From NCBI GenBank assembly GCA_016206175.1, contig JACQSB010000018.1:1334-65333 (forward strand): DNA of 64,000 nucleotides, in the 5' to 3' direction. Positions 58,097 to 62,837 of the stretch are shown here, one piece after another; position 1 is the first letter of the stretch; each line of letters begins with the position of its first letter. The notes below the pieces were generated by a model, which was not told where the DNA came from, ran no database searches, and was given only the letters and a program-made list of their open reading frames with translations. The DNA comes from Candidatus Uhrbacteria bacterium (GTDB lineage Bacteria > Patescibacteriota > Patescibacteriia > JACQRZ01). A program made the translations under genes and the position numbers.

Positions 58097-58468
58097 ACTA
58101 TTACCGCAGAGAATGGTAAAGATTTTACTCCCATAGAAATTTATAACAACGCTCTGCGCGCTATGGTATTCTTGCGATGACCCGCACGGACGCCGCTGCC
58201 GCGTCGTATGCGGCAGGAAGCGCAATCACTTCAAATGCCCAGTCCTGCAAAGCTGCTCCAAGCGCGCCATTGATTCAATAATGAGTATTTCATGGGTGAG
58301 CAGGATTTTAGGGATCACGTACGGCGCGGTATCGGGACTCGGCGTATCCATGCCGATAAATTTTATTTGTATGGAATAAAGGGGTCAGGGACCTTTTCTC
58401 ACTTTTTTCTTTTCACCTTTTCTTTTTCCTAACAGCTTGCCCAGAATGAGATTGACTGATACATATTC

Positions 58469-58565
58469 TTGACAATAATAATTGACGTAGTATTCTAGGG
58501 ATAGAATCCACATTGAGAAGCACCTCCTACGGTTCCGTCCTTAGGCGGTGTTTTTCTTTTTGTAC
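58469..58565 (+). ncRNA. candidate ~60-nt convergent antisense transcript at the 3' end of NYN gene 1
   Basis: TTGACA (58469..58474), 16-nt spacer, TATTCT (58491..58496). Hairpin CACCtCCTA...TAGGcGGTG (58521..58550) followed by TTTTTCTTTTT, overlapping the NYN stop codon at 58541..58543. Confidence 0.3.
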
Positions 58566-59050
58566 TCAAGTTTCTTCTGAAGATTATTGATAAAAACAAG
58601 CTTCTCTTTTGCCGTGCTCTTTAATAACGTTGAACATGTTTTGTAATAAGGACTGATGACCTTTTCGAGTTTATTCTTCTCATACAAAAAATTCACGGCT
58701 GAATAAAAGTCTCCGTCGCTGGTTACCAATACCGCCCTAGCACAATTGTTCTCGAAGTGGTCGATGACGATTTGAAGCACCATATCGGCATCGACATTCC
58801 CTTTATGTGCGCCGTCTCGATCTGGCAATACAGGCTTGAACTTCAGAATATATCCACTTTTTTGTAAGGAGCTATACAGGTCTTGGTTTTGAGGAATAAA
58901 GCCGATAAAAAGATAGGCAATCTTTACGGAATATTTTTCCGTTAAATAGACTCGAAATTTTTTGTAATCAAGCTTCCATCCTAGGCTCTGTACTCCGAGA
59001 TTAAGATTTTGACTGTCGATATAGGCATAATTATTTTCTTTGGCGATCAT
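58541..59050 (-). CDS. NYN (LabA-like) domain nuclease-family protein
   Basis: YAYIDSQNL...GNVDADMVL...VLVTSDGDF are NYN/PIN-like acidic motifs. ATG 59050 (MIAKENNYAY) follows the terminator of the kinase gene. Confidence 0.75.
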   Translation of the reverse strand: MIAKENNYAYIDSQNLNLGVQSLGWKLDYKKFRVYLTEKYSVKIAYLFIGFIPQNQDLYSSLQKSGYILKFKPVLPDRDGAHKGNVDADMVLQIVIDHFENNCARAVLVTSDGDFYSAVNFLYEKNKLEKVISPYYKTCSTLLKSTAKEKLVFINNLQKKLEYKKKNTA

Positions 59051-59079
59051 ATCACTGCAGTATACACTATAAATATCAG

Positions 59080-59104
59080 ATACAAAAGGCCCCCAAGGGG
59101 GGCC
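59080..59104 (-). terminator. intrinsic terminator after the histidine kinase gene
   Basis: Minus strand reads GGCCCCC-CTT-GGGGGCC followed by TTTTGTATCT. Confidence 0.72.
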
Positions 59105-59239
59105 GATTGTGCTCAATATACTACTTGGCTCTCGATCGTGGACGATGTGAGAACCCATCTCATGAAATGATATAATTGATATTGTGGACTGCTTTATCAA
59201 TAATCATACAGAATACCTTTTGAAGATTTACCTGAGGAT

Positions 59240-60880
59240 TTACCGATTTTTCATAACCAAGGGAATGGAAACAAAAAATGTTGCGCCTTTCTGTTCTTGT
59301 GACTCAAACCAGACAGACCCGCCAAAACGATCCACAATCTGTTTGACAACATAGAGCCCAAGGCCGGTACCGACCGCATTGAGTGCGCGGGCGTTATCTG
59401 CGCGAAAAAGTTTTGAAAAAATTTTATCGTGCTGATGAGCGGGTATACCACAGCCCGTATCAGCAATCTTCATGACAAGGCTGTCCACGTTCATCTTCCT
59501 GCCATCTACGCACTCGCCTTTTGTTACCCTCCAAACAGCGCAATCAATCGTACCCTTTGAGGGTGTATATTTAATCGCATTAGAGAGAATATTGATAACG
59601 ACCATGCGTAACAATTTTTGATCAATCAGCATGGTTGGGAGGTCATCAGCAAAGTGTGTCGCAAGCGAAATATTTTTTCGTTCAATCTCCGATTTCTGTT
59701 CACTGATGACGTGACTGATCACGGATACAGTATCGGTTGGCTCGAGCTTCAGAGTCAGTGTACCGAGCTCCAAACGCGCGACATTAAGCAGTGCGTCTAC
59801 CAGGCCAGCCATCTGTTGATTACTTTCATAAATTTTTTCAAAAAATCTTCTCTGCTGCTCATTGAGGGGGCCTGCGTCACCAGACAACAGCATCTCAGCG
59901 TGCCACTTAATTGTTGTGATTGGACCGAGTAGCTGATGGGAGGCAAGCGATACAAACTCTGTCTTTACCTTGTCAATTCCCTGTTCCTTTGTTATATCCC
60001 GAAATATCTCAACCGCGCCGACGACAGTATTCTCCAGCATGACCGGCGTAACGGTGATGGCGACCGGAAATTTTGTCTTGTCGCTGCGTATATAATAAAA
60101 ACCCCCGTGAATCGTTTTCATCCTTGGAAGATCCCTGCGCCATGCTTCGTCAGTAGTAGTAGTAGTAGTAGTAGTTGAGGTGGTTGTAGACGTCCCCGCC
60201 GACAGGGCGACTGACATGGGGCGATCGATCGTCGCAACAAGCTCTCCTTTTTCGTTCTCAATTGGAAAAATATCAAAGAGCAGCTTTCCGATAACATCCT
60301 TGCCCTCCAAACCAAGAAGTGCTTGCGCCGCTTGATTCATGCGCGTTATTCTGCCGGAAAAATCAAGGGTAATAACGCCGTCCCCGATACTGGCGAGGAT
60401 TGCCTCAACATGGGCCCTGACATGCGCGAGCTCTTGCTTTTCCGCTTGTAAATCCTCAAAAACGTTTCGCGCGGCAATCTTCGCATCTTCAGCTTTTTTC
60501 TCTATGAGTTTGTGTTCGGTGATATTCTGAAATACGGCGACAAAAAAATTTTTGTTAGGGCTGTATGCCCTGACGAAAAACCACCGTTCAAGCGACTCGA
60601 TGTGCATTTCAAAATCTTCCGATACTCCAGTCGAGGAAACTCTGCCGCAAGCCTCGAACAGTGTCGGATTTGATGCGATAATTCCGGGAATGAGCTGTGT
60701 GACATTCTTGCCTACGACATCTTTCAACCCGGTCAATCGTTCAAAATTTTTATTTACCGCAAGATAGGTAAAATCAACCGGACGGGCACGGGCATCAAAA
60801 ATCATGCGGCAATACATGATGCCGTCCGGCGAATTATCAAACAGTGACTTGTGGAGCTCTTCTGCATCCCAAGCGTTCAT
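59240..60880 (-). CDS. cytoplasmic PAS-PAS sensor histidine kinase (orphan, no cognate response regulator in window)
   Basis: Two PAS-like regions, H-box FVSLASHQLLGPIT, and N/G boxes NAIKYT, DTGCGIP and GTGLGLYV. Confidence 0.85.
   Translation of the reverse strand: MNAWDAEELHKSLFDNSPDGIMYCRMIFDARARPVDFTYLAVNKNFERLTGLKDVVGKNVTQLIPGIIASNPTLFEACGRVSSTGVSEDFEMHIESLERWFFVRAYSPNKNFFVAVFQNITEHKLIEKKAEDAKIAARNVFEDLQAEKQELAHVRAHVEAILASIGDGVITLDFSGRITRMNQAAQALLGLEGKDVIGKLLFDIFPIENEKGELVATIDRPMSVALSAGTSTTTSTTTTTTTTDEAWRRDLPRMKTIHGGFYYIRSDKTKFPVAITVTPVMLENTVVGAVEIFRDITKEQGIDKVKTEFVSLASHQLLGPITTIKWHAEMLLSGDAGPLNEQQRRFFEKIYESNQQMAGLVDALLNVARLELGTLTLKLEPTDTVSVISHVISEQKSEIERKNISLATHFADDLPTMLIDQKLLRMVVINILSNAIKYTPSKGTIDCAVWRVTKGECVDGRKMNVDSLVMKIADTGCGIPAHQHDKIFSKLFRADNARALNAVGTGLGLYVVKQIVDRFGGSVWFESQEQKGATFFVSIPLVMKNR
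60152..60175 (-). repeat. (ACT)8 trinucleotide microsatellite encoding poly-Thr inside the kinase
   Basis: The + strand has (AGT)x8 at 60152..60175. The protein reads GTSTTTSTTTTTTTTDE. Confidence 0.9.
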
Positions 60881-61519: not shown

Positions 61520-61713
61520 AAGGTATGCTTCTTAAAGTGCTGATTTATAACAATAAGTATAGCATGCTTTTTCGCATACTAGAATGCCATGAAACTCATA
61601 TCCCTCAACAATTAGGCGGTTCCAGGAATAGTTTTTTTGTGCACGAGGTTTTGTTTTTTATGGTAATTTCTTCTCCATATCCTCGTCTTATATACTGCCA
61701 TGGTTATCCACTA

Positions 61714-61805
61714 TGGACACAGGTTCGTTTCTGTGGTATAGTGGAATCGTAGGTGAAAGCCTACTAATCACGCGGTCCCGCCACAAGCGGGATTTTCGCT
61801 TTTTA
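61714..61805 (+). ncRNA. candidate ~55-nt convergent transcript abutting the 3' end of NYN gene 2
   Basis: TGGACA (61714..61719), 17-nt spacer, extended -10 TGgTATAGT (61734..61742). Hairpins GTAGG-TGAAAG-CCTAC and CCCGC-CACAA-GCGGG, then ATTTTCGCTTTTT ending on the NYN stop codon (61803..61805). Confidence 0.35.
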
Positions 61806-62453
61806 TAGATAATTCCTTTTACCGTCATAAAACCTTCCAAAATCAATATAGCGATCTTTTACCTTATGGAGCTCGCCCGCTGTCATATTGCGGACACCCA
61901 CGATATACACCTTTTTGCCCTTGAGTTTGAGCCGCTCAAGCGGCGCAGCCATATCGGAATCGCCGGAGTAGAGTATTACGCCCGAAACTTTTTCAGCATC
62001 ATCCATGATGTCCATTGCCATCTCAACGTCAAAATTGCACTTCGGCTCTTCAATGACCAGTCCTGTTTTCCGTATCTCTTCAACAAGCTCGTGCACTTTT
62101 GACGTAATGCCGTCATTGAATAAAGTCATCGTTGATCGCTTAAAAAGAAACGCCTGATCAATATTCTTGCGGATAAACTTCATGGGCTTTGAACGAAGCG
62201 TCGCGCCAGCCAGACGAATCCGCTTGTGAAACGCCAGTGAGGATGCGAGATCGCGCTCATTGACACCGTAATATGCTTTGACTTCTTTTACCGACGGGAA
62301 CGACAAAAGTTGTTTGATGACGCTCTCAATCCGAAACCGCCAACCCAGGACATTTTGCCAATGAAACATATTCGTGATATCGAGATACGCGATGAGTGCT
62401 GTCTCATGGCGAAGAATATCGTAGTATGCGTTTTGCTTTTCATCTACGGTCAT
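61803..62453 (-). CDS. NYN (LabA-like) domain nuclease-family protein, second distinct paralogue
   Basis: IAYLDITN...NFDVEMAMD...ILYSGDSDM are NYN acidic motifs. Confidence 0.75.
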   Translation of the reverse strand: MTVDEKQNAYYDILRHETALIAYLDITNMFHWQNVLGWRFRIESVIKQLLSFPSVKEVKAYYGVNERDLASSLAFHKRIRLAGATLRSKPMKFIRKNIDQAFLFKRSTMTLFNDGITSKVHELVEEIRKTGLVIEEPKCNFDVEMAMDIMDDAEKVSGVILYSGDSDMAAPLERLKLKGKKVYIVGVRNMTAGELHKVKDRYIDFGRFYDGKRNYL

Positions 62454-62649
62454 AGAAATTGCGTGTTGCTCCTTACGGCCTCCTCTTGGGAGACATGGGG
62501 TCAGCCATAATTTTTATCAACCCCACAAATTAAATCATAGCAAGTTTCCTATTGATTTCAATTCTTTTTTGCATTCCGACGGAGAAAAATTCAGATACGA
62601 AAAAGCCCCTGAAGGGGGAGATCCCGCTTTGTATCCTGTCTGGTAAGCA

Positions 62650-62837
62650 CTGACGACATTGAGTTCTACAATCGCGTAGGCGTTCATAAAGCATTTGAAG
62701 AACAGCTCGAGGCAATAAAAACACAAGGATGGACATACAATTACAAACGGCCCCATCAGGCATTAGGGTACCTGACATCCATGGAGTTCTATGAGCTCTG
62801 GAAAAAAATCCCGAGGAAGGGTAAACGCTCAATTTAA
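62650..62837 (+). mobile_element. C-terminal remnant of an rve (DDE) integrase/transposase
   Basis: Not in the ORF track. The + frame reads ...IEFYNRVGVHKAFEEQLEAIKTQGWTYNYKRPHQALGYLTSMEFYELWKK...*. YN..RPH.ALGY.T..EF is the conserved rve tail. There is no upstream catalytic domain and an in-frame TGA lies at 62610. Confidence 0.65.

Follow-up and report, generated by a model that had tools for sequence, protein, structure and literature searches.

A conserved, apparently undescribed small-RNA family convergent to LabA-like NYN nuclease genes in Patescibacteria

RESULTS

A predicted small-RNA gene at the end of NYN-1

We analyzed a 64,000-nucleotide (nt) stretch of DNA from Candidatus Uhrbacteria bacterium (GenBank assembly GCA_016206175.1, contig JACQSB010000018.1, positions 1,334 to 65,333), which we call the window, and concentrated on the 3' end of NYN-1, a minus-strand gene for a LabA-like NYN nuclease. 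A first-pass annotation made from the letters alone had proposed that NYN-1 faces a short convergent transcription unit on the plus strand, with its own promoter and terminator, that would produce a small RNA (sRNA) antisense to the end of the gene. We call this predicted RNA sRNA-1. The features of the locus are as follows.

58469-58474 and 58491-58496, plus strand: predicted sigma-70-type promoter of sRNA-1, with -35 TTGACA, a 16-nt spacer and -10 TATTCT (scan score, 10/12)
58503-58563, plus strand: sRNA-1, predicted to be ~61 nt, with a 16- to 17-nt single-stranded 5' tail (AGAAUCCACAUUGAGAA), a hairpin and a U-run
58520-58551, plus strand: hairpin and terminator stem of sRNA-1, 13 positions, loop UUCCGU, with a conserved U/C mismatch
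58551-58561, plus strand: terminator U-run of sRNA-1 (TTTTTCTTTTT), the complement of the NYN-1 KKKN codons
58541-59050, minus strand: NYN-1, 169 amino acids (aa), LabA-like NYN (PIN-like) nuclease, Pfam PF01936, stop codon TAA at 58543-58541
59059-59064, minus strand: possible -10 of NYN-1, TATACT, 8 nt before the ATG, read from the sequence only
59078-59104, minus strand: intrinsic terminator of the upstream histidine kinase gene, GGCCCCCCTTGGGGGCC then TTTTGTATCT, which parts that gene from NYN-1

The TTGACA-16-TATTCT promoter was present on the plus strand as first described (58469-58496). The hairpin also stands, 23 nt beyond the -10 rather than the roughly 25 nt given at first, and it is longer than the 8 bp originally assigned to it. 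Its core, from G58520 to U58551, has 11 pairs and 2 mismatches (U58525/C58546 and C58530/U58541) in 13 positions, and four to five A-U and G-U pairs lengthen the stem to 58515-58556. The ends of sRNA-1 are predicted, with the start placed 7 nt past the -10. The resulting 61 nt and the overlap with the stop codon and the last ~7 codons of the NYN-1 coding sequence are close to the first estimate of an RNA of about 60 nt antisense to the stop and ~8 codons. The 3' arm of the stem holds the complement of the stop codon (58541-58543), and the T-run at the end of sRNA-1 is the complement of the conserved C-terminal lysine codons of NYN-1 (..LEYKKKNTA and stop). On the transcribed strand, sRNA-1 has both parts of a rho-independent terminator, a G+C-rich stem and then a U-run.

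The predicted sRNA-1 fold had a free energy of -22.3 kcal/mol (z score, -4.7), and none of 200 shuffled sequences was equally stable. When both strands of a 79-nt segment were folded, the plus strand gave -25.1 kcal/mol (z score, -3.3) versus -17.5 kcal/mol (z score, -1.3) for the NYN strand. Taken from the window alone, before any comparison, the promoter and terminator signals of sRNA-1 were weak because sites of both kinds are common in the region: 6.5 kilobases (kb) held 25 promoter-like sites versus 11 expected and 12 terminator-like sites versus 6.5 expected.

The sRNA-1 unit is conserved across Patescibacteria

We compared 80 loci with NYN-1 homologues, taken from different species in many classes of Patescibacteria, and based a covariance model and the stem statistics on an alignment of 78 distinct homologous units. 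The model found exactly one strong match per locus in all 80, without exception on the strand antisense to the NYN 3' end, with scores of 54 to 86 bits there and at most 42 bits on the sense strand. Its single match in the window was at 58500-58565 on the plus strand (74.9 bits; E = 5.6e-12), and the reverse strand reached 20 bits. The family has one layout antisense to NYN, which is TTGACA, 16 to 17 nt, a TATAAT-like -10 that often carries a TGn extension, 22 to 23 nt, the hairpin and the U-run. The promoter, the distance to the hairpin, the hairpin itself and the U-run are kept in 79 to 80 of the 80 loci, which answers the first-pass annotation's call to check conservation next to NYN homologues. 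The -35 is an exact TTGACA in 59 of 79 loci and matches at 5 or more of 6 positions in 75 of 79; the -10 is acceptable in 71 of 79, and its end lies 22 to 23 nt from the hairpin in 67 of 79. Promoter scores, which measure match to consensus and not promoter activity, were 10 to 12 out of 12 in 67 of 79 loci. The AGAAUaCACAuGAAAAA segment, between the predicted start and the stem, is conserved though it lies outside the NYN open reading frame (ORF) in most loci.

In the stem alignment, 93.9% of cells were paired, and compensatory change was found in 11 of 12 pairs. The observed covariation was reached by none of 500 shuffles, controls in which the stem was slid had only 39 to 55% of cells paired, and RNAalifold independently predicted the same helix. 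The polarity of the imperfect pairs was decisive. The antisense strand (plus in the window) has 81 G-U pairs and 57 mismatches, and the NYN strand has 2 G-U pairs and 136 mismatches. Because the cells that depart from Watson-Crick pairing read as G-U on the antisense strand and as A-C mismatches on the NYN strand, the alignment indicates that the structure is under selection in the plus-strand RNA, the strand to which the hairpin had been assigned at the outset. Conservation, covariation, strand polarity and linkage to NYN genes are direct observations on these loci.

The U/C mismatch in the stem persists in 68 of 78 units, and the loop is conserved as GGUUYCGUCC. Mean pairwise identity was 0.73 for the sRNA, 0.72 for codon positions 1 and 2 of the NYN core and 0.44 for codon position 3. 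The sRNA thus matches positions 1 and 2 and far exceeds position 3, and purifying selection on it is therefore as strong as that on the protein.

Conservation of this DNA does not follow the reading frame. Some homologues end in ..KKHRLRTEP, which is the +1-frame reading of the window DNA past its stop, so at the gene end and past it the DNA is conserved at the nucleotide level. Measured against the hairpin, NYN-1 ORFs end in all three frames (46, 26 and 7 loci), and in 11 loci an AGA>TGA change gives an earlier stop while the bases downstream are still conserved. Since end frames and early stops vary, the last 5 to 10 residues of NYN-1 seem dispensable and seem to be shaped by the RNA gene on the opposite strand. 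The C termini that lie over this same DNA read ..KKKNTA, ..KKHRxRTEP or ..EKHR before the stop, or are cut short by the early AGA>TGA stop. The first-pass annotation had named, as an outcome that would speak against its proposal, a T-run explained by lysine codons alone together with a hairpin that is not conserved; the covariation in 11 of 12 pairs and the nucleotides kept across frames contradict this.

In the 8 nt past the stem, the family has a mean of 6.7 U on the antisense strand versus 5.1 on the sense strand. An A-run stands on one side of the hairpin and a U-run on the other, and judged by these runs the hairpin looks like a bidirectional terminator in most loci. The earlier statement that no U-run exists in the NYN direction is correct for the window copy, which has 4 U in 8 nt past the stem on the sense strand, and does not extend to the family.

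A scan of the whole window with Rfam 15 gave no match at the gathering threshold, and relaxed searches gave best matches of 14 to 18 bits against cutoffs of 48 to 114. A known RNA family was ruled out on these grounds, and a search for tRNA and transfer-messenger RNA genes found none. We found no account of a NYN-associated antisense RNA in Rfam or in the searchable literature. From these comparisons, sRNA-1 is apparently a conserved, undescribed sRNA family that accompanies NYN-1.

Two loci (L039, 3583-3647, minus strand, and L005, 3580-3645, minus strand) have, ~100 nt past the first unit, a tandem second unit that resembles sRNA-1 and has a promoter of its own. The stems of these second copies are changed with compensation, and the loop GGUUCCGUCC and the architecture are kept.

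NYN-1 encodes a predicted PIN-like nuclease

The start of NYN-1 is the ATG at 59050, though the ORF was listed as 58541-59200 on the minus strand. The protein is identical (100%) to a Candidatus Uhrbacteria protein and matches Pfam PF01936 at 51.4 bits (cutoff, 24.2; E = 2e-13). Five residues, D12, D87, D89, D112 and D114, are invariant in the family (41 sequences) and are the acids expected for a PIN-like metal site. An AlphaFold 2 (AF2) model had a predicted local distance difference test score (pLDDT) of 90.7 and a predicted template modeling score (pTM) of 0.87, and the sole close solved neighbor in a structure search was 2qip, a LabA-like NYN protein of unknown function (template modeling score, 0.72 to 0.75). 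NYN-1 thus has all the marks of a NYN domain, namely a profile match above cutoff, the acidic site and a PIN-like fold. An NCBIfam search with NYN-1 gave no match, and PADLOC returned a weak match to a generic NYN model. Relatives of NYN-1 number in the thousands in Patescibacteria and are 65 to 86% identical across classes.

The terminator that the first-pass annotation had placed upstream of NYN-1 is real; its stem (59104-59088, minus strand) has 7 G-C pairs followed by TTTTG. A separate NYN promoter, which had also been proposed, is plausible (TATACT, 59064-59059) in a region that is not conserved among homologues. Across the 80 loci, the DNA upstream of the NYN ATG is unconserved, and -10-like hexamers recur near the ATG, often 2 to 20 nt before it (window 59046-59073, minus strand; L001 to L080). 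No evident Shine-Dalgarno sequence precedes the ATG in the same window segment or in the upstream regions of L001 to L080. If TATACT served as the -10, it could give a leaderless or near-leaderless mRNA, and NYN mRNAs may be leaderless or may rely on read-through from a co-directional upstream gene.

In the passages of a PIN-superfamily survey that deal with them, the LabA-like COG1432 group is given as function unknown, and roles in tRNA and rRNA processing are suggested for bacterial NYN proteins (PMC5499597). One bacterial NYN enzyme, which is CRISPR-associated, acts as an endonuclease on single-stranded RNA, depends on Mn and has no sequence specificity (PMC11346440), and by analogy an unrestrained NYN enzyme would therefore plausibly be harmful.

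A second NYN gene has its own predicted convergent sRNA

The window holds a second, distantly related NYN gene with a convergent predicted sRNA.

61704-61712, plus strand: DnaA-box-like TTATCCACT ahead of the sRNA-2 promoter
61714-61742, plus strand: predicted sRNA-2 promoter, TGGACA-17-TATAGT with a TG extension
61749-61805, plus strand: sRNA-2, predicted to be ~57 nt, convergent to NYN-2
61803-62453, minus strand: NYN-2, 216 aa, second NYN family, Pfam PF01936 (E = 1e-17)

NYN-2 and NYN-1 share a weak N-terminal match (29% identity over 72 aa), and NYN-2 has 540 relatives in Patescibacteria. In sRNA-2, a GNRA-type hairpin 1 (61749-61764) is joined by the linker UAAUCACGC to a terminator stem (61772-61799), after which comes a U-run that ends at the NYN-2 stop codon, with an ORF overlap of only 3 nt in the window. 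The predicted fold has a free energy of -22.9 kcal/mol (z score, -4.4). We compared 80 metagenome loci of NYN-2 relatives and found sRNA-2 conserved in 60 distinct loci; across 49 distinct homologues, every cell is paired (100%). In hairpin 1, GNRA and UUCG tetraloops swap, and G-U closing pairs occur on the antisense strand. Most NYN-2 proteins end in ..KSENPAxGGxA, which is the translation of the complement of the sRNA-2 terminator. At another locus (L097), a relative with 47% identity to NYN-1 has a third sRNA variant in which UAAUCACG is joined to the GGGUUUCGUCCC hairpin. The comparisons point to two conserved NYN-tied sRNA families that are absent from Rfam and probably to a third.

DnaA boxes at the sRNA promoters

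A DnaA box (TTATCCACA, at most 1 mismatch, either orientation) lies just upstream of the -35 in 53 of 61 distinct NYN-2 loci and is perfect in 31 of them. At NYN-1 loci, a box occurs at a fixed place by the sRNA promoter in 25 of 79 and is perfect in 17; by our own estimate, which was not computed by a tool, ~0.02 perfect boxes would be expected at that position by chance. The DnaA-like box at sRNA-2 of the window matches at 8 of 9 positions, and the window sRNA-1 promoter has no DnaA box nearby and so lacks the mark of a DnaA-regulated promoter. The window as a whole shows no enrichment of DnaA boxes (13 versus 12.6 expected), and the GC skew shows no switch across it. An oriC-adjacent locus was ruled out by this lack of enrichment, the single box per promoter and the absence of a skew switch. 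The putative DnaA boxes point to promoter-associated regulation and not to a replication origin.

The NYN and sRNA genes form a compact, probably mobile cassette

NYN and its sRNA make up a compact cassette of ~600 to 680 bp in family 1, and the cassette encodes no recombinase. The neighbors of NYN-1 are rarely homologous between loci (151 neighbors fell in 133 clusters), a lack of synteny that was observed directly. Even copies with 83% protein identity to that of the window lie either between complex I genes and flavokinase or between ATPase and G3P dehydrogenase. Among 116 loci with full flanks, drawn from both NYN families, locus-specific direct repeats of 14 to 275 nt flank the cassette in 27 (~23%) versus 6 of 116 in an inverted-orientation control. 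The left repeat ends 4 to 50 nt before the ATG (up to ~140 nt in a few loci), the right repeat starts just past the sRNA promoter or DnaA box, and together they enclose ~590 to 680 bp in family 1 and ~780 to 930 bp in family 2. Because target-derived direct repeats flank NYN and sRNA in ~23% of loci, the pair is probably a mobile two-gene cassette.

The repeats resemble a long target duplication around a recombinase-less cassette. Loci that have them include L006, L012, L036, L043, L058, L059, L083, L096, L106, L110, L117, L118, L120, L123, L152 and L155, among others.

Cassettes can also stand in tandem. At L097 (1480-2905), an hsdM-like methylase gene is followed by a NYN-2 cassette and then by the NYN-1-like (47%) cassette, and behind each of the two stands a ~110-nt repeat, part of which is a copy of the hsdM 3' end. 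The nearest relative of the histidine kinase in the window (75% identity, at L165) belongs to a PAS-histidine kinase pair without either NYN gene. Synteny is lost beyond this pair, and L165 is only suggestive as an empty site.

DISCUSSION

Proposed action of the sRNA

We lean toward the reading that the sRNA regulates the NYN RNase in cis as an antisense RNA or serves as its RNA antitoxin, acting on the complementary mRNA 3' end in a type I-like layout, and we hold this to be somewhat more probable than its negation. An abundant sRNA would pair with the 3' end of NYN mRNA, to which it would be fully complementary because the two RNAs share the terminator region. Pairing would control the stability or 3'-end processing of the NYN mRNA and would thereby limit how much of a potentially harmful RNase is present. 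In this scheme we infer that the sRNA is transcribed and pairs in vivo, which way it acts on NYN, and that NYN is toxic. We count in its favor the near-consensus sRNA promoters beside unconserved NYN upstream regions and the separate NYN family that has its own convergent sRNA of the same architecture.

Comparison with known systems

The arrangement is that of the type I pairs txpA/RatA and bsrG/SR4 of Bacillus subtilis, which overlap convergently at their 3' ends (PMC3531473, PMC3834814). The first-pass annotation had drawn the likeness to txpA/RatA, and the convergent layout is indeed the same in that pair and in bsrG/SR4. As in both, the sRNA gene converges on the protein gene from its own strong (here predicted) promoter, the two transcripts overlap with full complementarity in their 3' ends and terminator regions, and the compact two-gene unit occurs in variable contexts. 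Unlike in both, the protein is a 169-aa NYN/PIN-like nuclease where those pairs have a hydrophobic peptide of <60 aa, the length of the sRNA is ~60 nt and not ~180 to 220 nt, and the NYN sRNA is conserved phylum-wide, with a DnaA box upstream of the promoter in many loci. A cis antisense RNA that overlaps the toxin mRNA, as type I systems have, is predicted in 80 of 80 loci; the small (usually <60 aa) hydrophobic peptide that serves as the type I toxin is not found, and NYN-1 is a soluble protein of 169 aa. Nor is there a tandem RNA repeat array upstream in the same transcript, as in type III systems, since the RNA is a single convergent unit with a second copy in 2 of 80 loci. We describe the NYN/sRNA unit as a cis-antisense RNA/nuclease module and assign it to neither the type I nor the type III family.

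Other systems resemble the module in part. SymE/SymR and RalR/RalA of Escherichia coli are type I systems in which nuclease-like toxins are under antisense RNA control. In the first pair the overlap of SymR is at the 5' end of symE; in the second, RalA is encoded in trans and depends on Hfq. The toxin folds are AbrB-like and DNase. By analogy, the NYN module would share with them an antisense RNA set against a nuclease-type toxin, with folds unrelated to NYN. ToxIN/AbiQ is a type III system whose ToxI tandem-repeat array lies upstream on the same strand and is processed by the toxin. The NYN module would resemble it in joining an RNA antitoxin to an endoribonuclease, with an RNA that is strongly expressed and presumably labile, and a role in abortive infection is plausible on this analogy. 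Unlike ToxIN/AbiQ, the NYN module has a single-copy convergent RNA, no array and a different toxin fold. GadY of E. coli is a convergent sRNA that pairs with the 3' untranslated region of gadX mRNA, stabilizes its target and is not in a mobile cassette. The NYN sRNA may be compared with it as a convergent sRNA opposite the 3' end of a neighboring mRNA, and the proteins are unrelated. NYN-1 itself fits the LabA-like NYN group (COG1432/PF01936; 2qip) in sequence, fold and acidic residues, as far as the group is described in the survey passages cited above. Unlike that group as described, it has a predicted antisense RNA partner, of which there is no mention in those passages (PMC5499597) or in the literature that we found.

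Alternative explanations

Several observations weigh against antisense control. The -10 TATTCT is the weakest component of the sRNA-1 unit in the window, and the two cassettes of the window have no recognizable flanking repeats. We found no relatives in the IMG/VR, INPHARED and PLSDB collections of viruses, phages and plasmids, which also ruled out a phage or plasmid origin. Identity of 65 to 86% among NYN-1 relatives is unusual and untypical of toxins and would be compatible with a housekeeping RNase, and type I toxins are small membrane peptides rather than 169-aa enzymes. Pure antisense action would need no conserved primary sequence, and the conservation of the tail, loop and U/C mismatch, which is as strong as that of the protein, therefore points to protein recognition. 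The tandem second copies at L039 and L005 add to this, since they are not complementary to NYN. It is possible, with a probability well short of even, that the sRNA acts through the NYN protein, by which it would be bound or cleaved or which it would inhibit, as a type III-like antitoxin, a cofactor or a substrate, with the overlap serving only to link the genes. Such action would suit an RNA whose single-stranded tail, loop and mismatch are conserved at the level of nonsynonymous sites, whose type differs with each NYN clade, and whose variants have in common the motifs GGUUUCGUCC and AAUCAC(G/A). It would also suit the second copies, which keep the loop, alter the stem and do not match NYN mRNA, and sRNA-2 of the window, whose overlap with the NYN-2 ORF is only 3 nt. 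However, the clade-specific types could reflect common descent, the locus has neither a tandem-repeat array of antitoxins nor, unlike ToxIN, an RNA transcribed together with the toxin, and the invariable 3' overlap is precisely what antisense control requires. Antisense pairing and protein binding are not mutually exclusive.

We think it improbable that NYN is a housekeeping RNA-processing enzyme, with the sRNA as its autoregulator or as a trans-acting regulator that is possibly linked to DnaA and replication, and that no selfish or defense module is involved. The NYN protein is very conserved, and its third codon positions are near saturation (0.44), from which the NYN-1 family would be old. 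The DnaA boxes at the sRNA promoters, the lack of plasmid, phage or viral copies in the three collections and the tRNA and rRNA processing suggested for bacterial NYN proteins in the survey passages (PMC5499597) are consistent with such an enzyme. The genomic setting argues otherwise: neighbors are nonsyntenic even for copies with 83% identity, the cassette lies between direct repeats derived from the target, two to three paralogous cassettes can sit side by side (in the window and at L097), and NYN is missing beside the orthologous PAS-histidine kinase pair in the nearest relative. The sRNA tail also has no pairing signal to the NYN translation start. Pairing at that start was rejected as a target of the 5' tail because the mean z score was +0.2 and no locus fell below -2.

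Very improbable, in our estimate, is an account in which the hairpin is simply the (bidirectional) NYN terminator beside a fortuitous promoter match, or serves the NYN mRNA by sequestering AGGAGGUG or by frameshifting at the A-run. The A-run and U-run around the stem, with a mean of 5.1 U in 8 nt on the sense strand, fit a terminator; UAGGAGGUG, in the 3' arm on the NYN strand, lies 7 nt ahead of an AUG in the window, and the homologues that end in ..KKHRxRTEP read the +1 frame. But promoter sequence and fixed spacing are conserved in ~75 of 79 loci, the sense strand has 136 mismatches and 2 G-U pairs, and the three-frame ORF ends and early stops indicate a tail that is dispensable and not recoded. 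The G-U polarity and promoter conservation in the alignment largely refute a terminator or mRNA hairpin alone. Two specific forms of it were rejected. A 42-aa ORF (58385-58513, minus strand) might have been coupled through AGGAGGUG in the hairpin; the median ORF there is 13 aa in 79 loci, and starts are often missing. A programmed frameshift at the A-run into ..KKHRLRTEP does not agree with ORF ends in all three frames and a degenerate sense-strand helix.

Wider significance

Patescibacteria, or the candidate phyla radiation (CPR), make up a large share of bacterial diversity and are thought to be poor in toxin-antitoxin and defense systems. To our knowledge, almost nothing is known of their regulatory RNAs. 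Each of the sRNA families described here accompanies a nuclease of the LabA-like NYN group, which is very large and whose function is listed as unknown, and the pairing offers a testable handle on the role of the nuclease through a candidate cognate RNA partner. If antisense control by the sRNA is true, the range of RNA-antitoxin systems would grow to include PIN-like enzymes. A DnaA box that recurs at the sRNA promoters suggests that replication status is linked to RNase control, and the long flanking duplications hint at an unexplained movement of very small cassettes. As a broader and more speculative proposal, which we regard as doubtful though worth stating, these units may form an unrecognized class of RNA-antitoxin or defense cassette that is widespread in Patescibacteria. 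In such a class, a strongly transcribed and often DnaA-box-associated sRNA would restrain a PIN-like RNase by pairing, binding or both, and cassettes of ~0.6 to 0.9 kb, with at least three NYN/sRNA types, would spread independently of a recombinase and leave long target duplications.

Other observations in the window

The 370-nt spacer between the sRNA-1 promoter and the next gene (58097-58468) is partly G+C-rich and has terminator-like plus-strand hairpins at 58339-58356 and 58379-58397, with a T-rich tract after them. We found no ORF, Rfam match or repeat that would account for this spacer, and six-frame translation and folding of it gave nothing recognizable. At ~62640-62835 on the plus strand, a short reading frame (..YNYKRPHQALGYLTSMEFYELW..) shows weak, below-cutoff similarity (E = 1.6e-4) to the C terminus of the transposase/integrase core domain rve_3, and it is probably an insertion sequence remnant between a Pyr_redox gene and NYN-2. 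The PAS histidine kinase between the two NYN cassettes (59240-60880, minus strand) has a threonine-rich tract, TSTTTSTTTTTTTTDE, at residues ~229 to 244 in its second PAS region.

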